Source: Planctomycetota bacterium
Lineage (GTDB): Bacteria > Planctomycetota > SZUA-567 > H5-PLA8
Reading direction: 5' to 3'
DNA length: 55,444 nucleotides
Assembly (NCBI GenBank): GCA_045863855.1
Contig: BTVV01000034.1
Coordinates: forward strand, 1-55,444
Part shown: one piece after another, positions 4,117-28,460 of the stretch
Numbering within the stretch: position 1 is the first letter of the stretch
Layout of the letters: the number at the start of each line of letters is the position of its first letter
Program-made: the position numbers and the translations under genes
The notes under the pieces: generated by a model
Seen by the model: the letters and a program-made list of their open reading frames with translations, nothing else
The model's database searches: none
What the model was told of the DNA's origin: nothing

Positions 4117-5739
4117 TCACTCGCCGCGAGCTGCGCACAGATCGTCCCAATTCAGTCCGAAACGCAGCAGATATTTGCGCAGCCGGTCGGCGTCGTTGGA
4201 CGTTTTACGCTGAGCGCGCGACCGTTCGAACAACCGCCTGCCGGCGTCCGAGAGCGATCGCGAGCGCCGGCAGACTTCGACTACGCGCTCCAGTTGCAGC
4301 CGGTCGAACAAGTCCAGTTCTTCGAGCCGCGTTGGCCCCATCAACGTCTCGAGCGCGCCATCGCCTCCGGCCTCCTGCGGATCGGCCTTCCACGCCGCGC
4401 GCAGGCGCTCGAGTTCTTCCTCGACCTCCTCGGGCGAGATGCGTCCGCCCGGCGCGAGCGTAGCCATCCGGTACACCGCACCGTTCAAATCGCGGAAGTT
4501 GCCCAGCCAAGCCGACTGCTCCGAGCGCGCGAAAGCGAGAAATCGTTCGCGCCCTTCGCGCGTGAACGAAACGTGCTGGCCCGACTGCCGAGCGTAGGCT
4601 TCCAGTTCGTAGTCCAGATTCGGAGCGATGTCTTCGCGGCGTTCGGCCAGTCCGGGCAACCGGAAGGTCCACAAATCGATGCGCGCAAGCAAGTCTTCTC
4701 GGAAACGGCCGGCGCCGACTGCGCGGTGCAAGTCGCGGTTCGTCCCGGCAATCAGCAGAAAATCGCTCCGCGCCTCACGGTCGGCGCCCACCGGCAGGAA
4801 TACCTTCTCCTCGATCGCGCGCAGCAGCATCGCCTGCTCGTCGGAACCCAGTTCCCCGATCTCGTCGAGGAATAGCACTCCCCCGTCGGCGGCGCGCAGA
4901 AGCCCCTCGCGGTCGCGTGTCGCGCCGGTGAACGCGCCTTTCTCGTGTCCGAAAAGCGCCGACATCGCCGCATCGCCGCGCAACGTCGCGCAGTTCACTT
5001 CGACGAAAGACCCGCGAACCAGGTTCCGGCTCTTGCGCAGTTCGTAGATCCGCCGCGCCAGGAGGGACTTGCCCGCGCCCGTCGGCCCGGTCAGCAACAG
5101 CGGTGCGCGGCTGGCAACCGCCACCTGTTCGATCCGCTCGATCAGCTTGTTGAAGCCCGCGTTGCGCGTCTCGATTCCAGACTTGAGGAACGACGCGCCC
5201 TCCTTCATCTCCTTGCGAAAGCGCGAAGCCAGACGGTCATACTTGGATAGATCCAGGTCGATGATCTTGTACGCGCCTGGTTCGCCCGAAGCCCGCTGCG
5301 CGGGCGGTTCGGTCTGCACCAGCCGCGCGGGAAAGTAATGCGTCTCGGTCAGCAGGAACAAACAAATCTGCGCGACATGCGTGCCCGTGGTGATGTGGAT
5401 CAGGTAATCCTCGCGGTCCGTATCGAATGCGTAGCCGCGCGCGAAATCGTGCAGCGCTCCGTACACTTCCTCGAAGTCCCACGGATCGCGGATCTGAAGC
5501 ACATGGCGGCGCACCTCGGTTTCGGGCGAGACCGTACGAATGTCGGCGTCGATCAGCTTGCCGAGGGCCTCGAAGCGCGGCTGCACGAGCAACTCGAAAC
5601 GCGAGACCAGCAAATCCTCGTGCTGGCACAACGCCACGCTGGGCCGCCAGCGTTCCCATCGCCCGGCGTTCCGTCCTTGATCCAGGGTCGGGCCCAGCAG
5701 GCCGATCAAGACGGTGGGCTTGGTCTTATCCTGCTTCAT
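4117..5739 (-). CDS. rtcR: RNA repair transcriptional activator RtcR (CARF + sigma54 AAA+)
   Basis: N-terminal 'RWERWRPSV...DPWDFEEVYGALHDF...HITTGTHVAQIC', Walker A GPTGAGKS, GAFTGA, FLDEIGEL, C-terminal 'NDADRLRKYL'. Confidence 0.97.
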   Translation of the reverse strand: MKQDKTKPTVLIGLLGPTLDQGRNAGRWERWRPSVALCQHEDLLVSRFELLVQPRFEALGKLIDADIRTVSPETEVRRHVLQIRDPWDFEEVYGALHDFARGYAFDTDREDYLIHITTGTHVAQICLFLLTETHYFPARLVQTEPPAQRASGEPGAYKIIDLDLSKYDRLASRFRKEMKEGASFLKSGIETRNAGFNKLIERIEQVAVASRAPLLLTGPTGAGKSLLARRIYELRKSRNLVRGSFVEVNCATLRGDAAMSALFGHEKGAFTGATRDREGLLRAADGGVLFLDEIGELGSDEQAMLLRAIEEKVFLPVGADREARSDFLLIAGTNRDLHRAVGAGRFREDLLARIDLWTFRLPGLAERREDIAPNLDYELEAYARQSGQHVSFTREGRERFLAFARSEQSAWLGNFRDLNGAVYRMATLAPGGRISPEEVEEELERLRAAWKADPQEAGGDGALETLMGPTRLEELDLFDRLQLERVVEVCRRSRSLSDAGRRLFERSRAQRKTSNDADRLRKYLLRFGLNWDDLCAARGE

Positions 5740-5747
5740 AGCTTATA

Positions 5748-5771
5748 ATCTATACTATTATTATAATAGAT
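5748..5771. promoter_or_regulatory. Candidate RtcR enhancer (inverted repeat ATCTAT-N12-ATAGAT)
   Basis: AT-rich inverted repeat next to the rtcR start and about 100 bp upstream of the -24 element. Confidence 0.45.
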
Positions 5772-5871
5772 AGTTCAAGTTCAAAACGTCCGCCCATACC
5801 CAATCCTCTCCCCTTACCGCAAACTCTTACGCAAATAGAAGTTACGGAGAATATCCAAAAAGCATCCAACC

Positions 5872-5887
5872 TGGCCTGCCGTATGCC
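5872..5887 (+). promoter_or_regulatory. Sigma54 (-24/-12) promoter of the rsr-Y RNA-rtcB-rtcA operon
   Basis: TGGCCTGCCGTATGC: GG at 5873-74, exactly 10 nt, GC at 5885-86. Lies next to a divergent enhancer-binding protein gene. Confidence 0.75.
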
Positions 5888-5933
5888 TTTCCGTGAACTC
5901 CGAGTACAGGCGCGGCGAACAGGAGCTAAACCC

Positions 5934-7490
5934 ATGGCCCACAAGAACCTCTTCCGCTCGATGCCGGGCAAGCTGATTCCGGCGGCCGATGTGCACAATG
6001 CGGAAGGCGCGAAGGCGTATGCGTACGAGCCGAAGCACAAGCTCGCGCAGGTGGCGGCGACGGGATGCTTTGGCGCGACGTATTACGCGTCGGCGGGCGC
6101 GCAGCTCGAGGCGATTCTGGAGCTGGCGAATCGCGTGGAGCCGCTGTTCGTGGCGCGGACGGCGATTTATGCACGCGAGCGCGGGCACATGAAGGATATG
6201 CCGGCGCTGCTGTGCGCGGTGCTGGCGGCGAAGGCGCCGGGCGTGCTGGCGGAGGTTTTCGAGCGCGTGATCGATAACGGAAAGATGCTGCGCACGTTCG
6301 TGCAGATGCTCCGCTCGGGTGTGACGGGGCGGAAATCGCTGGGCACGCTGCCGAAGCGGCTGGTTCTGCGCTGGCTGGCGAACCGGTCGGACGAGGCGAT
6401 TTTCAAGGCTTCGGTGGGCGCGAGCCCGTCGCTGGCGGATGTGGTGAAGATGGTGCACCCGAAGCCGGCGACGCCGGCGCGGGCGGCGCTGTACGGGTAC
6501 CTGCTGAACAAGGCGCACGACGCGGCGGCGCTGCCGGAGCTGGTGCGCGCGTACGAGGCCTTCAAGCGCGGCGAGTCGCGGGCGGTTCCGGCGGTGCCGT
6601 TCGAGCTGCTGACGGCGCTGGAGCTGGATACGCAGGCGTGGCAGGGGATCGCGCGGCACGCGGGCTGGCAGATGACGCGGATGAATCTGAACACGTTCCT
6701 GCGCCACGGGGTCTTCAAGGACCGGGAGCTGACGGAGCGGATCGCGCAGCGGCTGCGGGACCCGGACGAGATCCGGCGCGCGAAGGTGTTTCCGTACCAG
6801 CTCATGGTGGCTCACGCGCAGGCGCACTCGGACGTTCCGCACGCGGTGCGCATGGCGCTGCTGGATGCGATGGACCGGGCGCTGGCGAACGTGCCGGTTT
6901 TCGCGGGGCGGGTGGCGGTCTGCCCGGACGTCTCGGGTTCGATGTCGAGCGCGGTGACGGGAGCGCGGCCGGGGGCGACGAGCGTGGTCCGCTGCATCGA
7001 CGTGGCGGCGCTGATCGCGGCGGCGATCCTGCGGCAGAATCCGGCGGCGCGGGTGATCCCGTTCGAATCGGACGTGGTGAAGGTGAAACTCAACGCGCGG
7101 GACACGGTGCTGACGAACGCCGAGAAGCTGGCGAAGATCGGCGGCGGCGGGACGAACTGCAGCGCGCCGCTGAAGCTCCTGGCGCGCGAGCGCGCGGAGG
7201 CGGACCTGGTGATCTACGTTTCGGACAACCAGTCGTGGGTGGACGGGCACGCCGGCGGGCGCGGGACGGGGCTGATGGCCGAATGGGAGGCCTTCAAGCA
7301 GCGCAACCCGAAGGCGAAGCTCGTCTGCATCGACCTGCAGCCGTACGGGACGACGCAGGCCCAGGAGCGCGCGGACATCCTGAACGTGGGCGGGTTCTCG
7401 GACCACGTTTTCGAAGTGCTGGATGCCTTCCACCGGGACCGGTTCTCGGGCGCGCACTGGGTGGAGATCATCGAGCAAGTGACGTGGTAG
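5934..7490 (+). CDS. rsr: Ro60-related RNA-binding protein Rsr (TROVE + VWA)
   Basis: 'NAEGAKAY...LAQVAATGCF..TYY', 'MKDMPALL', 'RMNLNTFLRHG', 'VFPYQL', MIDAS 'DVSGSM', 'GGGTNCSAPL', 'SDNQSW'. AGGAG RBS precedes ATG 5934; the track start 5883 falls inside the promoter. Confidence 0.95.
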   Translation: MAHKNLFRSMPGKLIPAADVHNAEGAKAYAYEPKHKLAQVAATGCFGATYYASAGAQLEAILELANRVEPLFVARTAIYARERGHMKDMPALLCAVLAAKAPGVLAEVFERVIDNGKMLRTFVQMLRSGVTGRKSLGTLPKRLVLRWLANRSDEAIFKASVGASPSLADVVKMVHPKPATPARAALYGYLLNKAHDAAALPELVRAYEAFKRGESRAVPAVPFELLTALELDTQAWQGIARHAGWQMTRMNLNTFLRHGVFKDRELTERIAQRLRDPDEIRRAKVFPYQLMVAHAQAHSDVPHAVRMALLDAMDRALANVPVFAGRVAVCPDVSGSMSSAVTGARPGATSVVRCIDVAALIAAAILRQNPAARVIPFESDVVKVKLNARDTVLTNAEKLAKIGGGGTNCSAPLKLLARERAEADLVIYVSDNQSWVDGHAGGRGTGLMAEWEAFKQRNPKAKLVCIDLQPYGTTQAQERADILNVGGFSDHVFEVLDAFHRDRFSGAHWVEIIEQVTW

Positions 7491-7498
7491 CGAAGTAA

Positions 7499-7557
7499 GG
7501 GCGGAATGCCGCCGGGACTACATTTCGATGTCGCGTCTCGGCAACTCTTGTCCGCCC
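7499..7557 (+). ncRNA. Y RNA-like 1 (minimal, about 59 nt)
   Basis: GGGCGGA/TCCGCCC terminal stem, ATGCC/AACTCTTG internal loop, GCCGGGAC/GTCTCGGC upper stem, ACAT-TTCG-ATGT cap. Starts 9 nt after the rsr stop. Confidence 0.7.
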
Positions 7558-7588
7558 GCTTTCGAGAAAGGTGACGTTGTAAAGAGGA

Positions 7589-7703
7589 GTGACGAATGCC
7601 TGCGGGAGTACATGGCAAAAGGTGGCAACACCGACCGGGTTCATATCCCGGACCGGCGCCGGGCAACCGGCGCCGGGTTCTCTCGCAAACTCCTTGTCGT
7701 CAC
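7589..7703 (+). ncRNA. Y RNA-like 2 (T-arm plus long GNRA-capped helix, no D arm)
   Basis: GTGACGA/TCGTCAC stem containing GACGAATG (GNCGAAN0-1G Yrl motif), TGCGGGAG/CTCTCGCA stem, GGTG-GCAA-CACC hairpin, T-arm CCGGG-TTCATAT-CCCGG, 10-bp helix capped by GCAA. Confidence 0.78.
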
Positions 7704-7726
7704 GCGTAACGGAGTGCAGAGCGTAA

Positions 7727-7858
7727 GCGGCGAATGCCGGCGGAACTACATCATCCAAATGACGCGGTTGTGGGTTCGAATCCCATCGCGGGCCCCAAAC
7801 TGGACGGCCCGCGTAGCTCAACGGTAGAGTGCGATGTTTCGCCAACCCTAGTCGCCGT
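7727..7858 (+). ncRNA. yrlA: YrlA-type Y RNA with circularly permuted tRNA-like domain
   Basis: GCGGCGA/TCGCCGT stem with GGCGAATG motif, GGCGGAAC/GTTTCGCC stem, T-arm GTGGG-TTCGAAT-CCCAT (7770-7786), acceptor-like CGCGGGC/GCCCGCG, then TA + D-arm GCTC-AACGGTA-GAGT. Confidence 0.9.
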
Positions 7859-7882
7859 ACTTGGCATCGAAAGCGAGGCTTT

Positions 7883-8560
7883 ATGTTCGATCGAAAGCAG
7901 ATGAAAAAAGCGGTCGAAATACAGGGCCGCAGCTACGCGTTCTTGAAGTGGATGCAGAAAGGGCTACGCGTGCAATCACGACAAGGCGCCTGGTCGCACC
8001 TCGACCTGGATGTCGCGGATGCCGCGGCGGATTGGATTCGCCGCCACTTGACGGGGATCCCGGAGGACGCGCAACCGGCGTGGGATGACATTCCGGTCTT
8101 CGCGCGCTTCCTGAGTTCGTACTTGAAGACCTCCTATCGGATCGTCCGCGCACGGCTCTCACGCTGCGGTTGCTACTGCGACTGGTGCAGCTACATGGGC
8201 TCAGCGTTGCAACCGCGGCAGCCGGGAAAGAAAGCCGCGACCAGCGCCGAAGCACTCAAGCGCGGGTATGTACGGCTACTCGCGGAGGAACTGAAGCTTC
8301 CGTACCTGGAGAGCGACTTCGAGGCGATCCTGAGCGATGCGGCATTGTCGCCGCACATATCGTGGTGTGCATACGGGCAGGAAATGCTGCGCCGCATGCA
8401 TTTCTCGAGCCAAGGTGAAGGGGTACTGGTGCTCTGGCGCGAGATTGCGTGGAACGAGGAAGGCCGAGTACAAGATGGATTCAAGCTCGATGCACAGCGC
8501 TTCCTTTATGCGGAGGAAGCGGTAATAGAAGGCCTGAAGAAAGCGCTGCCGCTTAACTAA
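7883..8560 (+). CDS. Hypothetical protein with CGCYCDWC cysteine cluster
   Basis: GAGG RBS then ATG 7883; 225 aa; fills the gap between yrlA and rtcB. Confidence 0.75.
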   Translation: MFDRKQMKKAVEIQGRSYAFLKWMQKGLRVQSRQGAWSHLDLDVADAAADWIRRHLTGIPEDAQPAWDDIPVFARFLSSYLKTSYRIVRARLSRCGCYCDWCSYMGSALQPRQPGKKAATSAEALKRGYVRLLAEELKLPYLESDFEAILSDAALSPHISWCAYGQEMLRRMHFSSQGEGVLVLWREIAWNEEGRVQDGFKLDAQRFLYAEEAVIEGLKKALPLN

Positions 8561-8573
8561 TAAGGATACTGCC

Positions 8574-10082
8574 ATGCTGACGATCGATCCGAACCAGAAG
8601 CCGGTCATCCATCCCACCGGAGAAGCGACGGGGCTGCTGCCGGCGCGGGAGAGCGCGGGGAAGCCGATCACGGTGATCGGAACCGAGGCGATCCGCGACG
8701 GGTTCGACGCGACGTGCCTGCAGCAGGCGCTGAACGCGCGTTCGGCTCCGGGCGTAAGCGAGCTGGTGCTGAACCCGGACGCGCACGCCGGCTACGGCGC
8801 TCCGGTGGGCTGCGTGCTGGTTTCGCCGACGCACGTCTACCCCGGTCCGGTGGGTGTGGACATCAAGTGCAGCATGAGCCTCCTGCAGCTCGACGTGCCG
8901 GTGGATGCGGTGCGCGAGAAGCGCGTGCGCCGGGCGCTGATCGATGCGATCGTGGTCCGGACGCCGACGGGCGCGGGCCAGGGGCAGCGCGCGGCACCGA
9001 AGAGCCGCCCGGTGGACGAGGCGCTGGGGAAGCGTGCGAGCGTGGAAGGCGCGAGCGCGGCGGTCTGCGAAGCGCTGGGGATTCCGGCGCATTGGGCGGA
9101 GGCGTGCGAGGACGCGTTTCACCGCGGTCACGACGATACGAGCGCGGCGCTGGAAGCGCGCCTGGACGAACTGCTGGCTTCGGGACTCTTCCGCAACTTC
9201 GCGGACAAGATGCGCCAACTCGGCTCGTACGGCGGGGGCAACCATTTCGGGGAATGCGAGGCGGTCGAGGTGGGTACGGACGCGCGGGCGCAGGAAGCGG
9301 CGCGCGTCTTCGGTCTGAAGGACGGCTGCGCCGCGTTCCTCTCGCATTGCGGCTCGCGCGGGTTCGGCAACATTCTGGCGCAGGGGCAGTTCCGCGCGCT
9401 GCAGGGGCACTTCGGAACGTGGGACATCCCGCTGCCGGGCGGGGACCGCGAGCTGGTTTACGCGCCGCTGGGGACGCCGGAGGCCGACCGTTATCTGGAC
9501 GACATGGCGCTGGGCGCGAACTTCGCGACGGTGAACCACATGCTGATCAACGCGCTGGTGCTGGAGGCGTTTCAGGAGATCCTGCCGGGGACGAAGGGCG
9601 AGCTGGTGTATTTCATCAGCCACAACATCGCGCGGAAGGAAGTGGTGAACCAGCAGCCGAGCTGGGTGCACCGCAAGGGGGCGACGCGCGCCTTCCCGGC
9701 GGGGCACCACGCGCTGGCGGGGACGCGCTTCATGGCGACGGGGCATCCGATCCTGCTGCCGGGGAACCCGACGGCGGGGAGCGTGGTGATGGTGGCGGAG
9801 CCCGGCGCGGAGAAGAGCTGCTTCAGCGTGAACCACGGCGCGGGGCGCTGCATGGGGCGCAAGGCGGCGGAGCGCGCGCTGGACCAGGCGCAGATCGACC
9901 GCGAGTTCGAGGAGCTGGATATTATTTACAACGCGCGGCAGTACCCAAAGGACGAGGCGCCGGCGGCGTACAAGAATTTCGGGGAGGTGCTGCGCAGCGT
10001 GGAGGCGGCCGGGCTGGCGCGGCCCGTCGCGAAGCTGAAGGCGCGCTTCGTGATCAAGGATGCGGCGAAGGCGGACGATTGA
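8574..10082 (+). CDS. rtcB: RNA ligase RtcB family
   Basis: PDAHAGYG, VGVDIKC, GGGNHF, SHCGSRG, HN, HRKGAT, HGAGR and DEAPAAYK motifs; AAGGA RBS. Confidence 0.95.
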   Translation: MLTIDPNQKPVIHPTGEATGLLPARESAGKPITVIGTEAIRDGFDATCLQQALNARSAPGVSELVLNPDAHAGYGAPVGCVLVSPTHVYPGPVGVDIKCSMSLLQLDVPVDAVREKRVRRALIDAIVVRTPTGAGQGQRAAPKSRPVDEALGKRASVEGASAAVCEALGIPAHWAEACEDAFHRGHDDTSAALEARLDELLASGLFRNFADKMRQLGSYGGGNHFGECEAVEVGTDARAQEAARVFGLKDGCAAFLSHCGSRGFGNILAQGQFRALQGHFGTWDIPLPGGDRELVYAPLGTPEADRYLDDMALGANFATVNHMLINALVLEAFQEILPGTKGELVYFISHNIARKEVVNQQPSWVHRKGATRAFPAGHHALAGTRFMATGHPILLPGNPTAGSVVMVAEPGAEKSCFSVNHGAGRCMGRKAAERALDQAQIDREFEELDIIYNARQYPKDEAPAAYKNFGEVLRSVEAAGLARPVAKLKARFVIKDAAKADD

Positions 10083-10136
10083 TCCGCCATCGGGCGAGTT
10101 TCTTGCATCTTGGAGCGCGCTTCGCGTTGACTGTTT

Positions 10137-10180
10137 GGTTCACCTCCCCTACCCCTCCTTGCTTGGCAAGGAGGGGAAAC
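10137..10180. repeat. REP-like palindrome, copy A
   Basis: GGTTCACCTCCCCTACCCCTCCTTGCTTGGCAAGGAGGGGAAAC; near-identical to 12237-12276. Confidence 0.8.
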
Positions 10181-10234
10181 GTAAGGGCGAGGTTCACTAC
10201 TCAGGGAAGACCGCACTGGGAGTAAAACGAGCGG

Positions 10235-10843
10235 ATGGACGAGGACGACGACGAACTGGAGCCGCGGGAAGCGCTGCGGCGGCAGTTCGAACGCGAACTG
10301 GAGGCGAAACTCGCGCGGCGCGCTCGCGCGAGAAGCCACCGGCTCTTGCCCGACTTCTTCCTGGGCTGGGCCTCGGAAGAGACCTGGCACCTCTTCGTGG
10401 ACGGGCGTTACTACGGCTGCATCACGCTGATCCAGGCGCTGGCCGAAGGGCTGGCGAAATTCCTGGCGGAAAAGAACGGACTCCCGCGCGAATTGTACGC
10501 CGACGAGGGCTGGGTGAAGCCGCAGCGCCGGATCGATGCGCTGCACGCCGGCGGTCTGATTTCGGCGGCCGGCAAGGAGGCGTTCGAGCGGATCGCGGGG
10601 AACGACCGGAACGATTTTCATCACATGAACCGGCAGGTTCCGGCGGATCTGAAGCAGTTGGAAGCGCGCGCGGAAGAGTGTCTGCTGGCGCTGCATGCGA
10701 TCGAGAGCGAGGTGTTTGCGTACCGGATGGAGCCGAGCGGTCCGGTGATCCCGCTGCAGAAGCAGTATTGGCGGATCACCGCGAACGGGGATCTGCATGT
10801 GTTCATCAAGAATACGCCGGAGGATGCCGGAAAGAGCGGTTGA
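10235..10843 (+). CDS. HEPN superfamily (DUF4145-like) protein, putative RNase
   Basis: Predicted helical pattern 'E....F..G.Y......QALAE', 'RIDAL...GLI', and an Rx4H motif RNDFHH (10607-10624). Confidence 0.65.
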   Translation: MDEDDDELEPREALRRQFERELEAKLARRARARSHRLLPDFFLGWASEETWHLFVDGRYYGCITLIQALAEGLAKFLAEKNGLPRELYADEGWVKPQRRIDALHAGGLISAAGKEAFERIAGNDRNDFHHMNRQVPADLKQLEARAEECLLALHAIESEVFAYRMEPSGPVIPLQKQYWRITANGDLHVFIKNTPEDAGKSG

Positions 10844-10900
10844 AGCCGGTTTGCGCGAAGGCATGCCGCGATCGCGTGAGGTGCTCGCGCCGCCTTTCCT

Positions 10901-11007
10901 CGCACCCCTGCCGGGGTGCGCACGCGCTTAGAGAACGTGGTCCGGGGGTGACGCGCGCTCCAGAGCGCGCTTACCCCCGGCTCATTTCCTGTGCCGCTCC
11001 GCGGCAC
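10901..11007. repeat. Triple-hairpin palindromic intergenic element (REP/BIME-like)
   Basis: CGCACCCC-TGCC-GGGGTGCG; CCGGGGGT-GA-C-GCGCGCTC-CA-GAGCGCGC-TT-ACCCCCGG; GTGCCGC-TCC-GCGGCAC. Confidence 0.6.
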
Positions 11008-11099
11008 GGCAGGAGCACGACCAGGGAAAACGGCTCTGACAAGGACCCAGAATTTCGGCAAGCCCGGTTTGAAGCGGGGCGAACGGCGGATACCCATTC

Positions 11100-12116
11100 A
11101 TGATCCTCATCGACGGCGGGCAGGGCGAAGGCGGCGGGCAGGTGCTGCGCACGGCGTTGGCGCTGGCGCTCGTCACCGGCAAAGCCTTTCGCATCGATAA
11201 CATTCGGGCCAAGCGATCCAAACCGGGGCTGCTGCGCCAGCACCTGACGGCCGTGCAGGCGGCGACGGCCGTCGGCGGCGCGGAGACGCTGGGCGCGACG
11301 ATCGGTTCGAGCCGGCTCGACTTCACGCCCGGCGGGTTGAAGCCCGGCGCGTACCGCTTCGCCGTCGGGACCGCCGGCAGCGCCACGCTGGTGCTCCAGA
11401 CGATCCTCCCGCCGCTGCTGCTGGCCAAAGGCCCGAGCGAATTGGTGCTGGAAGGCGGGACGCATAACCCGTTCGCGCCGCCGTTCGATTTCCTCAGCCA
11501 AGCCTTCCTGCCGCTGCTGAAGCGCATGGGCGCGAAGGTCGAGGCGCGGCTGGAGCGGCACGGCTTTTATCCGGCCGGCGGCGGAAAATTCTCGGTGCGG
11601 ATCGAACCGACTCCGGACCTGCAGCCCCTGGAACTGCTCGAACGCGGCGCGATCGTGCGCCGGTCGGCGCGCGCGCTGCTGGCCAACCTGCCGGTGAGCA
11701 TCGCGCAGCGCGAACTGTCCATCGTGCAGGAGAAGCTGGGGCTGGCGGCGCACGAGATCGCGACCGAAACGATCGAACAGAACCCCGGGCCGGGGAACGT
11801 GCTGCTGGTGGAGCTCGAGAGCGAGCACGTGACGGAAGTCTTCACGGGCTTCGGCGAGAAAGGGCGCAAGGCCGAGGACGTGGCGCGCGCGGCCGTCGAT
11901 CACGCGCGGGCGTACCTGAGCGCGGGCGCGCCGGTGGGCCCGCACCTGGCCGACCAACTTCTGATTCCGCTGGCGCTGGCCGGACGCGGGCGGTTTCGGA
12001 CGTGCGAGCCGAGCGGGCACACGCGGACGAACCTGGACGTCATTCGGCGGTTTCTGGGCGCGGATATTCGGATCGAGGCGGAGACGGAGGGGAAGTGGGT
12101 GGTGGAGGTGAGGTAG
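11100..12116 (+). CDS. rtcA: RNA 3'-terminal phosphate cyclase
   Basis: IDGGQGEGGGQVLR, KPGLLRQHL, GTAGSATLVLQT, GGTHNPFAP, GFYPAGGG, HLADQL. Confidence 0.97.
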   Translation: MILIDGGQGEGGGQVLRTALALALVTGKAFRIDNIRAKRSKPGLLRQHLTAVQAATAVGGAETLGATIGSSRLDFTPGGLKPGAYRFAVGTAGSATLVLQTILPPLLLAKGPSELVLEGGTHNPFAPPFDFLSQAFLPLLKRMGAKVEARLERHGFYPAGGGKFSVRIEPTPDLQPLELLERGAIVRRSARALLANLPVSIAQRELSIVQEKLGLAAHEIATETIEQNPGPGNVLLVELESEHVTEVFTGFGEKGRKAEDVARAAVDHARAYLSAGAPVGPHLADQLLIPLALAGRGRFRTCEPSGHTRTNLDVIRRFLGADIRIEAETEGKWVVEVR

Positions 12117-23054: not shown

Positions 23055-24155
23055 TTAATTTGCGGGCGCACGTTTCCCGCGCCGCCAGACCGCCACGAGC
23101 CCCAATGCCAGCGCGAAGCCGAGCACGAACGGCCAGATGCGAGATTCCGGGGCGTCGTAATATTCGATGATAGGCGGGCGCTTAAACGCGCGCTGATCTT
23201 TCGAGGGCGCGAAGTACAAATCGGCGGGCGCGGGTGCGTAAGGCCAGCGGTCCGCAAATTCAGTCAGCCAAGCCTCTTGCGGTCCCGTCTGCACGGGCAG
23301 CTTGAGTTGCTCCAATAGCTCCTGGCGCTGCGCGGACGCCAGCGGACCCGACCAGACGGCTTCCCCGGTCCAAGGCTGTTCCCGCGTCAGTTCGCCGTCG
23401 TAGCGCGCTTCGGCGACAAAGAAAATGCGCAGCAGCCGCCCGTATTCGCCCAAGGCTTTTGCCGCCGCTTGAGAATCGGGCTCGCGGTACGGAAAGAGCG
23501 GCCGATCGGTCCGGAAACTCATCCGCAGGGCGGGCGCTTCCACCTTCATTTCGCCGGGCTCCCCCTTCTCCTTTACCACTTTCAGAGCAGTGATTTTCCA
23601 GCGCTGTTCGACGTACGGCTTCGCCCACGCTTCAACCTGGGGCGAGAAGGCAAACCCGTTCGATTCCAGCCACTCCATCAGGACGCGCGCGGTGTCGGCT
23701 TCCAGCACGCTAGCTTTGAAGCCGGCCACAAGTTTCTCTTCCAGCACGCGGACTTCCGGACCTTCGGCGGTCTTGGCAGCCCCTGGCCTCTGGTCGCGCT
23801 TCGATGGCCCGCAGCCCATGCCTTCGTTCGGCCGCGGTTTGCGTTGAATCTCCGGCGCCGTCCACTTCGCGAGCAGCGGAAAGGCACCGGCGCCCGACTC
23901 GTTCAAGTCGGGCTGCGACGGCGAGGGGATCAAGAAACCGAAGTCCGGGGTATCGGTCTTGAACGACGCTTTGCGAATGAAGTGCTCGGTCTTGTTCGCG
24001 GCGTCCCAGAGGATCACGAGGGTCTGATCGGCGTTGAGAACCTGCTGTCCCAAAGGAGGGGCGGGGCAACAGGCGGAGGTGGGCCGTTCGTGCCCCAGCG
24101 GCAGCGCAAAGGCGGCCGCCACGGCCAAGAACCATCCGAAGGCGCGTACGCTCAT
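23055..24155 (-). CDS. DUF2330-like exported protein with C-terminal TM anchor
   Basis: ATG 24155, signal peptide, 'ACCPAP...NADQT..ILWD...EHFIR.ASF...DFGFLIP.P', C-terminal TM plus basic tail. The track's upstream extension overlaps the next gene. Confidence 0.75.
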   Translation of the reverse strand: MSVRAFGWFLAVAAAFALPLGHERPTSACCPAPPLGQQVLNADQTLVILWDAANKTEHFIRKASFKTDTPDFGFLIPSPSQPDLNESGAGAFPLLAKWTAPEIQRKPRPNEGMGCGPSKRDQRPGAAKTAEGPEVRVLEEKLVAGFKASVLEADTARVLMEWLESNGFAFSPQVEAWAKPYVEQRWKITALKVVKEKGEPGEMKVEAPALRMSFRTDRPLFPYREPDSQAAAKALGEYGRLLRIFFVAEARYDGELTREQPWTGEAVWSGPLASAQRQELLEQLKLPVQTGPQEAWLTEFADRWPYAPAPADLYFAPSKDQRAFKRPPIIEYYDAPESRIWPFVLGFALALGLVAVWRRGKRAPAN

Positions 24156-24217
24156 GGGCGGACTCCTGTGCAATCCGTGCTTCCTACGCCTGAGAAGCGA
24201 AAAGGTTCGCCTTCGGT

Positions 24218-25270
24218 CTACCTCGCGATGCGGACTTCGCGGCCGGTTGCGGCGGATTTGTAAATCGCATCGAGGATGTACTGCATGCGCAGGCCGTCTT
24301 CGGCGTCGGCCAGCGGTCGCTTGCCGTGCAAAATCGCCTGGACGAGATCGGCTTGGGAACTCTGCCCTTCGAATCCTTTGGGGACGGGAATCTGTCCGCT
24401 GAGTTTCTGGCCGGCGCGGGTGGTGTGGAACTCGGCGACGAACTGGTATCCCCCGCCTTCGTTGCGGTGCACGAGCGAGCCGTCGGTGCCCAGCACGGTG
24501 GTGTTCATGCTTTCGGGGTCGTTCTGGTGGGCGCCCCAACTGATTTCGAAGAGCAGCGAAGCTCCGTTTTTGAAGCGGATGAAGCCGCCGGCGAGGTCCT
24601 CGCAATCGTACTGCGCTTTCAGGCGCTTGGCTTTTTCGCGCGCGAGGAGGTCGTGCGCCGCGGCGCTGACCGAGACCGGTTCGGGGTTGCCCATCAGCCA
24701 GAGCGCCAGGTCGATGCGGTGCACGCCGAGGTCAATGAGCGGCCCGCCTCCGCTGAGCTTCTTCTGTCCGAACCAGCTTCCGAACTTGGGGAACCCGTCG
24801 CGGCGCGTCCACTTGGTGACACCGTGGTAGGGCGTGCCGAGGAAACCGTCGTCGGCGAGCGCCTTGAGGCTCTGCGCGGCGGCGGTGAAGCGGTACGAGA
24901 GGTTGATGCCGAGGACGCGCTTGCGCTTGCGAGCTTCGTCGCGCATTTTGCGCGCCTGAGCGACGTTGAGCGCCATGGGCTTTTCGCTTTGGACGTGCGC
25001 GCCGGCCTTGAGGCAGTCGATCGTCACCGGCGCGTGGAGGAAGTTAGGCAGGGCGACGCTGACCAGATCGGGCCGCGCTTCTTTCAGCATGCGTTTGTAA
25101 TCGGTGTAGCACTTGGAGGCACCGATCGCCGGCGCCCATTCTTCGAGCCGTTTGGGGTCTAGGTCGGCGACGGCGACGAGTTCGGATTCGGACAGCGCGG
25201 CGTAGGTCTTGGCGTGATTCCGGCCCATACCCAATCCAACGACGGCGCAGCGCAACTTGGAACTCATCAT
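24218..25270 (-). CDS. Gfo/Idh/MocA family oxidoreductase
   Basis: VVGLG, EKPMA, GGGPLIDLGVHRID. Confidence 0.93.
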   Translation of the reverse strand: MMSSKLRCAVVGLGMGRNHAKTYAALSESELVAVADLDPKRLEEWAPAIGASKCYTDYKRMLKEARPDLVSVALPNFLHAPVTIDCLKAGAHVQSEKPMALNVAQARKMRDEARKRKRVLGINLSYRFTAAAQSLKALADDGFLGTPYHGVTKWTRRDGFPKFGSWFGQKKLSGGGPLIDLGVHRIDLALWLMGNPEPVSVSAAAHDLLAREKAKRLKAQYDCEDLAGGFIRFKNGASLLFEISWGAHQNDPESMNTTVLGTDGSLVHRNEGGGYQFVAEFHTTRAGQKLSGQIPVPKGFEGQSSQADLVQAILHGKRPLADAEDGLRMQYILDAIYKSAATGREVRIAR

Positions 25271-25442
25271 AAGGAGGCTCCCGGTGAAAGTCCTGCGATG
25301 AGGGTACGCGCTCCAGATATAGCGAAACGCGCGGAATTGAGAACCGCAGAATGCCGCGTACGCGGTACGTACGATCGCGCGCGATTTGCCGTCCGTCCGG
25401 ACGGCGCTCGCGCTACCATACGCCGGGCTGGGAAGGAACGTT

Positions 25443-26885
25443 ATGCGCGGTGGATGGGTTTCCTTGTTGGGTGTTACGCTGCTGTGTGCGGCGGGCGCGG
25501 CTTGGGCGGCAGGCGACGGTCCGACGACGGCACAGCAGGCGGAAACCTGGGGCGAGCAGCTTGGCGGGCTGGTGGCTCAGGCGGCCGGCGTATCCTTTAA
25601 GGAGGGAAAAGTCCCGACGGTGCGGCTGGCGACGGCAAAGGAGGCCGGGGCGCGGCTGGAGGCAGAGTTCGCGGCGTATCTTCCCGCCGCGTTGCAGGAG
25701 GAACTTCCGGAGCCGGAGGCGCTGGGCGGGCAGTTCCTGGCGCGCTATCTGTTTTCGCATCGCGGGATCGTGCTGGTTCCGGAGAACCTCGCGGCGCTGC
25801 CCGGCGCGAGCGGCCTGGATCCGCTGCAACGGGCAGGCATTTTGAAGCTGGTGCTGACGCAGGCGCTGACCCTGGCGCTCTTGGATCAACAGGCGCCGCT
25901 GGCTGCGGCGTATTACGCGCCCGGCGGAAGCGATGCGGCGCTGGCGCACCGGGCGATCTGGGAAGGCGTACAGCGCTTGGTTCAGGACGCGGTGGCCAAG
26001 GAATTGGGGCTCGACGAGCGCGTACGGGCGCTGGCGCGCTGGAACGGTTTCGCGATTCAAACTCCGGTGGCCGGGATGGGCGAGGACTTCTGGCGCGCGC
26101 AGCGAATCCGCATGGCGAGCGCCGACCGCTTGGGCGAAGCGGGCGCGCGCTTCGTGGCGGCGGTGCGCGAAGCGAAGGGCGCCGAGGGCTTGCTCGAGGC
26201 GCTGCGCAAGCCGCCGCGCTACACCAGTCAGATCCTGGTGCCGCGCGATTATATTTCCGGCTCGGCGGCGGTCCCAAAAGACGAACTGCTGCAGGCGACG
26301 CTGGCGGATGCGGTCGCCGATTACTTCCAGCCGCCGGAATGGGTCAACGAAAGCCACTCGGTGGGCGCGTTGTCGCTCGAACGCGCCGACGCGTGGGCGC
26401 GCTGGCAGGACGGCGGCGGGCCGCGGGCGGAGCTGACGCGCAGCTTCGATTACGATTATCTCTGCGGGCAGAGCCTGATCGGCAATAGGAATTCGAAGGA
26501 TGTGCCGGCTCAACGCGCGGCCTCGTTGCATGTCTTCCGTTCGCCCGAAGCGGCGGCGCGGTTTCTGCGCTTCCGGCAGACCGCGGTGCGGGAGGACTGG
26601 AACCGCTTGGCCGAGCAACGGTTCACGGTCGAGCGCCAAAGCGTGGTGGGCGGGAAGGATCTGATTTTCCCGAAGCCGCAGGCCGGCTGGCCGGATCAAG
26701 GCTTGGCGATGCTGCTCTCGTTTAATTCCGGCCCGCGCAGCAAGACGGCGCAGAGCAATCAGTACTTCTTCCTTAAGGGTATGTGGGTGCTGGATCTGGA
26801 CCTCGACGTCGAACCCGACGCGGAAGCGCTGGGCCGCGTGGTTCAAGCCTTCGTGAACGGGTATACGAAGCACGCAGGCGAATAG
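25443..26885 (+). CDS. Hypothetical secreted protein
   Basis: AAGGA RBS, ATG 25443, signal peptide ending AWA, long ORF. Confidence 0.7.
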   Translation: MRGGWVSLLGVTLLCAAGAAWAAGDGPTTAQQAETWGEQLGGLVAQAAGVSFKEGKVPTVRLATAKEAGARLEAEFAAYLPAALQEELPEPEALGGQFLARYLFSHRGIVLVPENLAALPGASGLDPLQRAGILKLVLTQALTLALLDQQAPLAAAYYAPGGSDAALAHRAIWEGVQRLVQDAVAKELGLDERVRALARWNGFAIQTPVAGMGEDFWRAQRIRMASADRLGEAGARFVAAVREAKGAEGLLEALRKPPRYTSQILVPRDYISGSAAVPKDELLQATLADAVADYFQPPEWVNESHSVGALSLERADAWARWQDGGGPRAELTRSFDYDYLCGQSLIGNRNSKDVPAQRAASLHVFRSPEAAARFLRFRQTAVREDWNRLAEQRFTVERQSVVGGKDLIFPKPQAGWPDQGLAMLLSFNSGPRSKTAQSNQYFFLKGMWVLDLDLDVEPDAEALGRVVQAFVNGYTKHAGE

Positions 26886-27281
26886 CCGGACTTGAAGCAC
26901 CATGAGAGGTCTACGTCGTATACCTATCTTATTAGCGACTCCAAGCCGCTCCGGCGCGTCAACTTAAGCAGACCTGGGCTGTATTGAACAATTCTACGAA
27001 GCGGATAACTCCAGATCTTGGGAGCATTTGAAAACAGGCGTAAGGCTATGGGATTCTGGAACTCAAATCGGCATCGCGCGAAAAAGTGGGCACTGGGTTC
27101 AACCGGTCGGCGTATATAGGGTATCGACAACACGGCAGCAGGGCGTCCAAGTTTTTGCCCTGTCTGACCTTGAGCATTATGCACATCGCGTCACGATGGT
27201 GGAGAGATAGCTCTCGCACCGTGCAAGGTGCGTGAGATCGAGTTTTGTTGTGTCCAACAAGCACGAGGCGGAGGCTGGGCG

Positions 27282-28460
27282 ATGCCGATCAGCAAGTGTG
27301 GGGAATGCGGGCGGACGTACAACATCAAGCCTGAGCAGTACGGGCGGGTGAAGTGCAAGTGCGGGGCGATCCTGAACGGCCCCACCGATGTCGAATCCGC
27401 GAGCGAAGACAGCCCCTTAAAGGATCAGGTGGACAAAGAGCTGAGCGACATGGAGGCGGTCAAGGCGTTGAAGGACGCCTACGACCGTCTGCGCGAGCAG
27501 ATCGGCCAGGTGATCGTCGGTCAAGAGAAGGTGGTCGAGGAACTCCTGATCGCGATTTTCGCACGCGGGCACTGTCTGCTGGAGGGCGTGCCGGGTTTGG
27601 CGAAGACGCTCTTGATCAGCACGCTGGCTCGGGCGCTGCATCTGTCGTTCAAGCGCATTCAGTTCACGCCGGACTTGATGCCTACGGACATCACGGGCAC
27701 GGAAGTGATTCAGGAGAACCGGAGCACCGGGGAGCGCGAGTTCCGCTTCATCAAGGGCCCGATCTTCGCGAACATCATCCTGGCGGACGAAATCAACCGT
27801 ACGCCGCCCAAGACGCAGGCGGCGCTGCTGGAAGCGATGCAGGAAAAGTCGGTCACGGTGGGCGGGACGAACTACAAGCTCGACGCGCCCTTCTTCGTGC
27901 TCGCGACGCAGAACCCGCTGGACCAGGAAGGCACGTACACGCTTCCCGAAGCGCAGTTGGACCGCTTCATCTTCAAGATCTTCGTCAACTATCCGAGCGA
28001 CGACGAAGAGATGGAGATCATGAAGCGCGTGACGACACCGCGGAAGGTGGACATCGAAGGCGTGCTGGACGGCCCGCAGATCCTGAAGCTTCAGGAAATC
28101 GTGCTGCGCGTACCGGTGGCGGACCACGTGTACCACTACGCGAAGAAGATCGTGCGCAGCACGCGCCCGGCCATGGGCGAAGCTCCGGACTTCATCAAGG
28201 AGTGGATCAGCTGGGGCGCCGGACCGCGCGCGAGCCTGAACCTGATCATGGCCGGGAAAGCCCGCGCGATCCTGAACGGGCAGTTCCACGTCTCGTGCGA
28301 GGATATCGCGGCGGTGGCTCCGTCGGTGATGCGCCACCGCATCGCGTGCAATTTCACGGCGCAGGCCGAAGGGATCACGACCGAGAAGGTGGTCGAGAAG
28401 CTGATCGAGACGATCCCGGTCAACGAAAAGCTGGACGCGCAGAGCGCGGCGGCGGACTGA
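27282..28460 (+). CDS. moxR: MoxR family AAA+ ATPase with N-terminal zinc-ribbon
   Basis: [40 protein letters not shown]-terminal CGEC...CKC; GGAGG RBS. Confidence 0.95.

Follow-up and report, generated by a model that had tools for sequence, protein, structure and literature searches.

In the passages of PMC4201824 that deal with it, the YrlA RNA of Mycobacterium smegmatis has a 7-bp acceptor stem with a 4-nt loop and is cut in vitro by M1 RNA at the expected RNase P site; in vivo it is found as halves of 65 and 82 nt. The 5′ half gains CA, which yields a CCA end (parts on this RNA in PMC4201824 and bioRxiv 10.1101/312249). Both papers, in those parts, treat the cleavage and the CCA tailing as a peculiarity; in the relevant sections of bioRxiv 10.1101/312249 most YrlA acceptor stems are expected to make weak substrates for RNase P, and YrlA is likened to circularly permuted tRNAs. 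Here we describe a YrlA RNA, consisting of a Ro-binding stem and a tRNA-like domain, whose acceptor hairpin contains an encoded CCA in the tRNA frame. It lies on the forward strand of a stretch of 55,444 nucleotides (contig BTVV01000034.1, positions 1 to 55,444, of assembly GCA_045863855.1) from a Planctomycetota bacterium (GTDB lineage Bacteria; Planctomycetota; SZUA-567; H5-PLA8). This whole stretch is called the window, and the bacterium the host.

The window YrlA, known from sequence alone, resembles the M. smegmatis RNA in its 7-bp acceptor stem; the RNase P cut and the CCA end are described for the latter (PMC4201824, same passages). M. smegmatis encodes only A73-C74, and CA is added after nibbling, whereas in the window RNA a full C73-CCA is encoded, followed by a linker of 8 nt and the G-1 that pairs with C73. 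As far as these passages describe it, the M. smegmatis locus is not controlled by RtcR, unlike the window locus with its divergent rtcR. The YrlA of Salmonella Typhimurium, presented with its crystal structure in the relevant part of bioRxiv 10.1101/312249, shares with the window RNA the family RF02553, an rsr-yrlBA-rtcBA operon with divergent rtcR (the Salmonella operon type, as given in the passages of PMC7790460 concerned) and the mimicry of T- and D-arms; however, it lacks a CCA, has a stem of 6 bp with a short loop and is not cleaved by RNase P, compared with 7 (8) bp and NCCA in the window.

A bacterial pre-tRNA, including pre-tRNA-His, has in common with the window RNA a 7-bp stem with G1:C72, N73, an encoded CCA and an N-1 complementary to N73. 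It differs in that the leader and trailer are fused in one loop in the window, a Ro-binding stem is found in place of the anticodon arm and the stem is unrelated to that of the host tRNA-His. The order T-arm, acceptor 3′ strand, CCA, loop, acceptor 5′ strand is also that of circularly permuted tRNA genes, known from Cyanidioschyzon and archaea, in which tRNA-processing enzymes open the loop and expose the CCA end (as covered in bioRxiv 10.1101/312249). Permuted tRNAs and tmRNA act in translation, whereas the window RNA contains a Ro60-binding stem and has neither an anticodon nor a tag-coding part. Two-piece tmRNA, which shares this order of parts, arises from permuted ssrA genes.

We found no mention in the literature of an encoded CCA in YrlA loops; in the main texts of PMC4201824 and bioRxiv 10.1101/312249, as far as these are covered, ‘CCA’ refers to M. 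smegmatis, tRNAs and other mimics. Neither of these main texts mentions an Ala identity (G3:U70) or a His identity in YrlA, and a literature search gave no mention of the former either. In supplementary file 3 of PMC4201824 the seed alignment contains, without comment, rows with an encoded N-CCA (Stanieria, Calothrix and Rhizobium etli).

Architecture of the window YrlA

The RNA matches the Rfam model of YrlA (RF02553) over positions 7727-7861 of the + strand with 70.4 bits (E 3.4e-14) and over the full length of the model (1-114). The gathering score is 69; the margin is narrow because the acceptor loop has a 14-nt insertion relative to the model. A preliminary description of the window had named the element YrlA and had laid it out as T-arm, CGCGGGC-C-CCA, linker, G-GCCCGCG and D-arm; the family match supports the name, and the layout is exact to the base. 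ARAGORN calls no tRNA and no tmRNA over the whole window. The parts of the RNA are as follows (the basis of each is given last):

7727..7861, + strand: YrlA Y RNA, Ro-binding stem and tRNA-like domain (Rfam and RNA fold)
7770..7786, + strand: T-arm GUGGG UUCGAAU CCCAU, in DNA GTGGG-TTCGAAT-CCCAT (sequence, Rfam, fold)
7787..7793, + strand: acceptor 3′ strand CGCGGGC, tRNA positions 66-72 (sequence, fold)
7794..7797, + strand: C73, the discriminator (7794), and CCA at positions 74-76 (7795-7797) (sequence)
7798..7805, + strand: 8-nt linker AACTGGAC (= AACUGGAC), in place of the 3′ trailer and 5′ leader (sequence, fold)
7806, + strand: G-1, partner of C73 (sequence, fold)
7807..7813, + strand: acceptor 5′ strand GCCCGCG, positions 1-7, followed by TA (sequence, fold)
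7816..7830, + strand: D-arm GCUC AACGGUA GAGU (Rfam, fold)

The acceptor stem consists of seven Watson-Crick pairs (7787-7793 with 7807-7813) and is extended by an eighth, C7794:G7806. RNAfold folds positions 7787-7813 into these 8 bp plus a CCA:UGG helix (3 bp, AAC loop, AC bulge) with -18.2 kcal/mol and z -3.7; none of 200 shuffled sequences folds equally well, and the fold of the whole RNA contains the identical acceptor hairpin. The extra G-1:C73 pair of the preliminary description is thus reproduced in the 8-bp stem. The pairing of CCA (7795-7797) with the UGG of the linker (7801-7803), also proposed there, appears in the fold of the window hairpin but is idiosyncratic: it is possible in 1/40 of the CCA-bearing YrlAs surveyed below, and we rejected it as a conserved feature.

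The T-arm and D-arm flank the acceptor-like stem-loop, based on the model alignment and the fold. The Ro60-binding motif GNCGAAN0-1G (as worded in the Fig. 3 legend of PMC4201824, the part drawn on here) is matched by GGCGAAUG at 7729-7736, and the RNA's 5′ and 3′ termini pair in the fold. The Ro-binding stem is found where a tRNA has its anticodon arm, which is lacking, and thus no GUG anticodon is present. The sequence set of tRNA-His (G7806 opposite C7794, CCA at 7795-7797) is present, but inside a closed loop.

In one search of sequences from public runs, among assembled contigs, one probable DNA contig covers 7680-7830 unchanged. Contigs of four public runs join 7766-7789 and 7811-7829 via a UGU anticodon arm. 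These 7829->7766 ‘joints’ are real tRNA-Thr(UGU)-like genes of other organisms, and the T- and D-arms of YrlA are near-identical to those of other organisms' tRNA-Thr(UGU) genes.

Survey of in-frame CCA in YrlA hairpins

We scanned three public collections (genomes, metagenomes and viral contigs) with the exact motifs CGAATGC, GGTTCRA and TAGCTCA, which represent Ro-binding motif, T-loop and D-arm and leave the acceptor hairpin unconstrained; by this choice of motifs the actinobacterial YrlA types fall outside the survey. The figures for genomes and metagenomes, and those of the merged sets, are counted among the matches listed. The acceptor hairpin was read in the tRNA frame with the T-loop as anchor. 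Hairpins of at least 18 nt with seven perfect pairs were counted, and shorter ones were left out. The sequences surveyed are related, not independent, and p-values overstate. The counts for each collection are:

Genome set: in-frame CCA 23/92; other interior offsets 6/486; shuffled interiors, mean 2.4, maximum 8
Metagenome set: in-frame CCA 13/75; other interior offsets 8/392; shuffled interiors, mean 1.6, maximum 7
Viral set: in-frame CCA 4/24; other interior offsets 3/124; shuffled interiors, mean 0.5, maximum 4

In the merged sets, CCA is found at positions 74-76 in 40/188 distinct perfect 7-bp hairpins (21%), or 32/138 when counted per distinct stem, and at other interior offsets in 1-2%. 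Hairpins with six of the seven pairs have it in 0/44. The in-frame CCA is not due to chance: it recurs far above expectation in YrlA genes and is coupled to perfect 7-bp stems, the commonest form among the YrlAs of the exact-motif search. Most carriers belong to the Alphaproteobacteria; the others are found in Acidobacteriota, Planctomycetota, Verrucomicrobiota and the lineage of the window. Rhizobium, Mesorhizobium and Erythrobacter are among the cultured carriers. In total, the in-frame CCA is spread over at least five phyla and viral contigs.

The 40 CCA-bearing cases are real Y RNAs: ARAGORN calls no tRNA in any of these YrlAs, a perfect 7-nt closing Ro stem is present in 20/23 of the genome-set CCA cases, and Rsr is encoded within 2 kb (<= 2 kb) in 45/49 loci with full flanks. 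A further 81 stretches with 0-5 of 7 outer pairs were left out of the counts. An in-frame CCA is present in 24 of them, and ARAGORN calls tRNAs in 43/81; the stretches left out are mostly viral tandem tRNAs.

Bacterial RNase P recognises its substrates by a stem of 7 bp, by G1:C72, by a pyrimidine (U) at position -1 and by an RCCA which pairs to the GGU of loop L15. In the 40 CCA-bearing hairpins, N73 is A in 19, G in 13, U in 5 and C in 3, i.e. a purine in 32/40. G1:C72 is found in 31/40 of them vs 88/148 of the others. At N-1 the CCA-bearing hairpins have U in 18, C in 13, G in 6 and A in 3, and the others G in 47, C in 46, U in 30 and A in 25; U at -1 is therefore present in 18/40 vs 30/148 (Fisher p 0.004, uncorrected for kinship). 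In the hairpins without CCA the top triplets at this site are CCU, ACA, UCA, CAA and GCA, each of which is one base off CCA.

Conservation in related genomes

Among 61 related genomes, nine have a match to the YrlA model at E <= 0.001, three of them above the cut-off. The weaker matches in L006 and L014 were rejected; they are tandem tRNA genes overlapped by tRNA matches. The hairpins of the relatives are:

G002, same genus: acceptor hairpin identical; the 135-nt RNAs show 6 differences, all of them outside 7766-7826
G011 copy 1, same family: without in-frame CCA
G011 copy 2, same family: CUG after C73
G005, same family: without CCA
G017, same order, unpublished genome: loops AGCGAT and G-CCA-AT

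A sample of the phylum (401 genomes) contains the YrlA pattern in 21 genomes, with 28 distinct hairpins. The preliminary description had made the conservation of CCA and G-1 in homologous yrlA genes the check on its proposal, and the outcome is mixed: CCA recurs widely (40/188) and is identical in G002, while CCA and G-1 are lacking in the nearest other genera.

Host tRNA ends and RNase P

The acceptor loop of YrlA has the format of a host pre-tRNA end. A CCA end is encoded in 69/78 of the host tRNAs called by ARAGORN, and in 52/69 of these CCA-encoding genes N-1 can pair with N73 (U:A, C:G and A:U covary). The extra pair is therefore generic and pre-tRNA-like, not His-specific. Most host pre-tRNAs could form an eighth acceptor pair which RNase P must ignore, tRNA-His excepted. 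C73 occurs in the host only in tRNA-His (contig C227, 2965-3041), together with an encoded G-1. The host RNase P RNA (contig C264, 173-614) is of type A (266.6 bits) and retains the consensus CGGGU stretch.

When either half of the tRNA-like domain is compared with the host tRNAs, no close relative is found and the best matches are generic, which speaks against the domain having been copied recently from a host tRNA; this candidate was rejected. Contig C1 of the host genome (G000) contains 26 tRNA genes in 4.5 kb (about 23667-28178, - strand), all with an encoded CCA; in many of them the base at +1 is an unusual A, C or U. An array resembling it is present in the relative G017 (L014). The C1 array may be mobile or phage-derived.

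His-like and Ala-like acceptor features

The preliminary description had read the G-1:C73 pair as the identity feature of tRNA-His. The pair and the CCA are indeed present in the window RNA; the identity itself fares less well, given the generic pair of the host tRNAs and the distribution of C73. In the survey, C73 stands opposite G-1 in 26/31 of the YrlA hairpins that have C73 (of the 188), or in 23/28 distinct stems; for comparison, U-1 accompanies A73 in 27/90 and C-1 accompanies G73 in 13/39. About 10 of the 26 cases merely close tetraloops (cGNRAg) and about 11 have long A/U-rich loops. A 5′-C...G-3′ closing pair is favoured by stability in hairpins. C73 is present in only 3/40 of the CCA-bearing YrlAs, and His identity is therefore not a shared theme among them; as a lineage-specific trait His-likeness is possible but weak. 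An example of the long A/U-rich loops is a series of the Pyrinomonadaceae type, in which one stem is found with the loops C-CAA..., C-CCA... and C-CGA....

Many YrlA acceptor stems resemble those of tRNA-Ala or tmRNA (e.g. GGGGCAG/CUGCUCC-A-CCA). Among the matches listed in L015-L361, G3:U70 is found in 46/188 perfect 7-bp hairpins; A73 accompanies it in 41/46, vs 49/142 in the other hairpins (Fisher p 4e-11, uncorrected for kinship), and eleven hairpins combine G3:U70, A73 and CCA. Cultured strains with this combination include Inquilinus limosus DSM 16000 (L028) and Labrys okinawensis (L084). In the phylum sample (L363-L391), six different stems retain U70:G3 and A73 while positions 4-7 vary. 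Per distinct stem, a G:U at 3:70 is found in 16/138, compared with 13 for position 1 and 15 for position 4, and we rejected its frequency as a signal of Ala identity. An Ala identity through G3:U70 is, judging from these sequences, a lead only. The window stem has C3:G70.

Genomic context

The order of the locus is rtcR on one strand and, divergent from it, rsr, three Y RNA modules, orfX, rtcB and rtcA, with rsr directly upstream of the Y RNA modules and on the same strand. Besides the window YrlA, it comprises:

4117..5739, - strand: rtcR, CARF-type RtcR domain and sigma-54 AAA+ activator, divergent from the operon (Pfam PF06956 RtcR, 1.6e-82; PF00158, 7.9e-49)
5883..7490, + strand: rsr, Ro60 orthologue and protein partner of Y RNA (Pfam vWA_Ro60, 9.1e-18; TROVE, 1.4e-08)
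7494..7560, + strand: YrlB-like Y RNA module with Ro-binding stem GGCGGAATGC... (RF02565, 28.3 bits, below the gathering score of 97, E 0.0047)
7589..7706, + strand: second, degenerate YrlA-like module with a Ro-binding stem and a T-arm-like hairpin and no D-arm (RF02553, 26.6 bits, below the gathering score, E 0.0058)
7883..8560, + strand: orfX, 225 aa, between yrlA and rtcB; conserved protein of unassigned family
8574..10082, + strand: rtcB, RNA ligase (Pfam PF01139, 7.2e-97)
11100..12116, + strand: rtcA, RNA 3′-phosphate cyclase (Pfam PF01137, 7.9e-81)

The Rsr protein scores 72 bits against the NCBIfam model Rsr, under its cut-off of 900. Three tandem Y RNA candidates are found at this locus, and likewise in the relatives G011 and G348. 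No sigma-54 promoter (TGGCAC-N5-TTGC with <= 2 mismatches) is present in the rtcR-rsr intergenic region (5740-5883); window-wide, the consensus is matched 34 times, fewer than in shuffled sequence (mean 61). Between rtcB and rtcA, a gap of 1 kb (10083-11099) contains long open reading frames (ORFs) in several frames. The ORF at 10060-11103 was rejected as a gene, as its Arg/Ala-rich low-complexity translation looks non-coding; this ORF and three alternative frames have no Pfam match save DUF6286 at E 0.02, below the cut-off.

The preliminary description had called the product of orfX a neighbouring HEPN protein. This protein has no match in Pfam or NCBIfam, also with E values allowed up to 1 and 0.1, and its 46 homologues are all unnamed. 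The gene is found between yrlA and rtcB in loci of Phycisphaerales, Planctomycetia and Verrucomicrobiales (four loci of the PVC group including the window), whereas the same-genus G002 lacks it and has rtcB directly after yrlA. An alignment of 40 sequences shows conserved C97-x-C99-x2-C102, H39, R171 and W185-R186; no conserved Rx4-6H is present among the invariant or near-invariant residues of the 40 homologues. The AlphaFold (AF2) model is all-helical with a pLDDT of 90.3. Its comparison with the PDB gives no fold match (Foldseek E >= 0.5, VIA-align Z <= 4.2) and no HEPN protein among the rows shown, and a search of the Atlas returns nothing informative (best feature score 0.77). Judged by sequence families, residues and the predicted fold, the HEPN label is unsupported.

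Re-sealing of a cut YrlA by RtcB had been suggested as well. RtcB joins 3′-phosphate or 2′,3′-cyclic phosphate ends to 5′-OH ends, and the products of RNase P have 5′-P and 3′-OH ends, so they are not RtcB substrates; only a different nuclease could make one. Also, rtcB adjacency is not enriched with the encoded CCA (6/10 of the CCA-bearing YrlA loci vs 25/39 of the others), and a link between the two was rejected. The suggestion is weakened on both counts.

Discussion

We lean towards the view that the window YrlA can be cut by RNase P, as the M. smegmatis RNA is, but with a CCA that is already present in the gene, and that cutting and trimming would give a two-piece RNA with a free CCA. The exposure of a CCA end by RNase P, which the preliminary description had put forward, has a direct precedent in the M. 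smegmatis YrlA (passages on it in PMC4201824). The RNA would be transcribed from the rsr-rtcB-rtcA operon, and Rsr would bind it at the terminal stem. The acceptor hairpin may be regarded as a pre-tRNA end closed on itself, with a 7-bp stem with G1:C72, C73, the encoded CCA and a fused trailer/leader of 8 nt. The type-A RNase P of the host would recognise the T-arm/acceptor stack and the NCCA and cut the loop at or beside +1, although G-1:C73 may move the cut to -2/-1, by analogy with pre-tRNA-His. Subsequently, 3′ exonucleases would trim the linker back to CCA. The product would be a two-piece Y RNA held together by its acceptor and Ro-binding helices, with the tRNA-like CCA end free. That the window YrlA is cut, the position of the cut and the role of a free end are what we infer from this analogy.

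Several observations weigh against cleavage. In the uncut RNA the predicted CCA:UGG pairing within an 8+3-bp hairpin could hinder RNase P, and the YrlA of Salmonella and Yrn1 of Deinococcus are not cut by RNase P (as reported in the corresponding passages of PMC4201824). Pairing of N73 with N-1 is not avoided, being possible in 19/40 of the CCA-bearing hairpins and 68/134 of the others (chance expectation 37.5%), which fits a stable closed hairpin equally. CCA is gained and lost among hairpins of one stem. In the phylum sample it is restricted to the type of the window and G002 and to G348 (A-CCA), i.e. 3/21 of the matching genomes, and the nearest other genera lack it (G011, G005 and, of the two copies in G017, one); since it is missing there and patchy in the phylum, it is not strictly required.

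The main rival is that the hairpin stays closed. The RNA would then be an intact Y RNA as in Salmonella, in which the 8 bp and CCA:UGG form a longer stable stem-loop and the NCCA is read uncut by a partner which docks onto tRNA 3′ ends, or is weakly selected. We regard this as possible but clearly the less probable course. It agrees with the minimum-free-energy fold in which CCA is paired (-18.2 kcal/mol, z -3.7), with the N73:N-1 pairing above chance in both classes of hairpins (19/40 and 68/134), with the G-1 opposite C73 in 26/31, about 10 of which just close tetraloops, with the loss of CCA from stems that are kept, and with the description of most YrlAs as closed loops in the part of bioRxiv 10.1101/312249 on this subject. 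However, a closed hairpin accounts neither for the CCA exactly at 74-76 (40/188 vs 1-2% elsewhere) nor for its limitation to perfect 7-bp stems (0/44 with six of seven pairs); CCA:UGG is possible in 1/40 only, and the M. smegmatis YrlA is cut despite a tighter 4-nt loop (PMC4201824, passages cited above). If the RNA is instead opened, a cleaved YrlA which retains G-1 opposite C73 next to a free CCA could be recognised and histidylated by HisRS, giving a charged Y RNA. For a free 5′-phosphorylated G-1 and a free CCA, the RNA would have to be cut between 7805 and 7806 and trimmed to 7797. HisRS needs no anticodon to charge acceptor microhelices that contain G-1:C73, and in pre-tRNA-His the G-1 is left in place by RNase P. 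Both facts favour histidylation, as do the G-1:C73 and CCA of the window, the host's sole C73 tRNA being tRNA-His with an encoded G-1, and the coupling of C73 with G-1 in 26/31 YrlAs (23/28 stems), far above that of G73 with C-1 (13/39). Nevertheless, we consider it improbable: C73 is found in 3/40 of the CCA-bearing YrlAs (A 19, G 13, U 5), the N-1/N73 pair is generic in the host (52/69), hairpin stability favours a 5′-C...G-3′ closing pair too, the window YrlA has no anticodon arm, its acceptor stem and arms are unlike those of any host tRNA, tRNA-His included, and C73-CCA is lacking in other genera of the family. It is nearly as doubtful that YrlAs with perfect 7-bp stems in general are two-piece, aminoacylatable tRNA mimics, in which RNase P would open the loop to bare an encoded or repaired CCA and synthetase binding or charging of a Ro60-bound RNA, through acceptor-end identity elements independent of an anticodon, would resemble that of tmRNA, His-like here through G-1:C73 and Ala-like in many other YrlAs through G3:U70 and A73.

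Two further explanations are both very unlikely. The loop could be the target or decoy of a metal-independent ribonuclease that acts on tRNA acceptor ends, either a toxin or the orfX product, whose 2′,3′-cyclic phosphate and 5′-OH ends would be re-sealed by RtcB with the help of RtcA. The operon context of rtcB, rtcA and rtcR, the conserved place of orfX between yrlA and rtcB in the four PVC loci and the idea that YrlA may compete with tRNA-cleaving nucleases (in the passages of PMC7790460 concerned) are in line with such a cycle; but orfX has no HEPN or nuclease family match, conserved Rx4-6H or fold match, G002 has the identical hairpin without orfX, CCA-bearing YrlAs are not enriched by rtcB (6/10 vs 25/39) and the sequence indicates no cut site. 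Alternatively, the NCCA would be a relic of a domain recently copied from tandem identical host tRNA genes, with CCA and spacer retained. Host tRNA genes do encode CCA, and tandem tRNAs mimic YrlA, as seen in the L006 and L014 matches overlapped by tRNAs and in the 43/81 low-pair stretches with tRNA calls. On the other hand, neither half of the domain has a close match among the host tRNAs, and the YrlA core is homologous across phyla, yet CCA is found on 32 different stems; the loops diverge fully while NCCA is kept, with five different CCA-bearing loops on the stem CGGGUCC/GGGCCCG.

The finding bears on the role of the tRNA-like domain in bacterial Y RNAs. About a fifth of the comparable YrlAs, among the matches listed, share the pre-tRNA-like end of the window RNA, which suggests that they are opened like tRNA precursors. 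Cleavage by RNase P predicts a large subclass of Y RNAs which this enzyme opens and which present a free tRNA-like 3′ end while on Ro60. If this is true, the partners to seek would be the CCA-adding enzyme, synthetases, EF-Tu, the ribosome and CCA-targeting toxins, and the Rsr/Y RNA module of RNA-repair operons would be tied to tRNA end metabolism.

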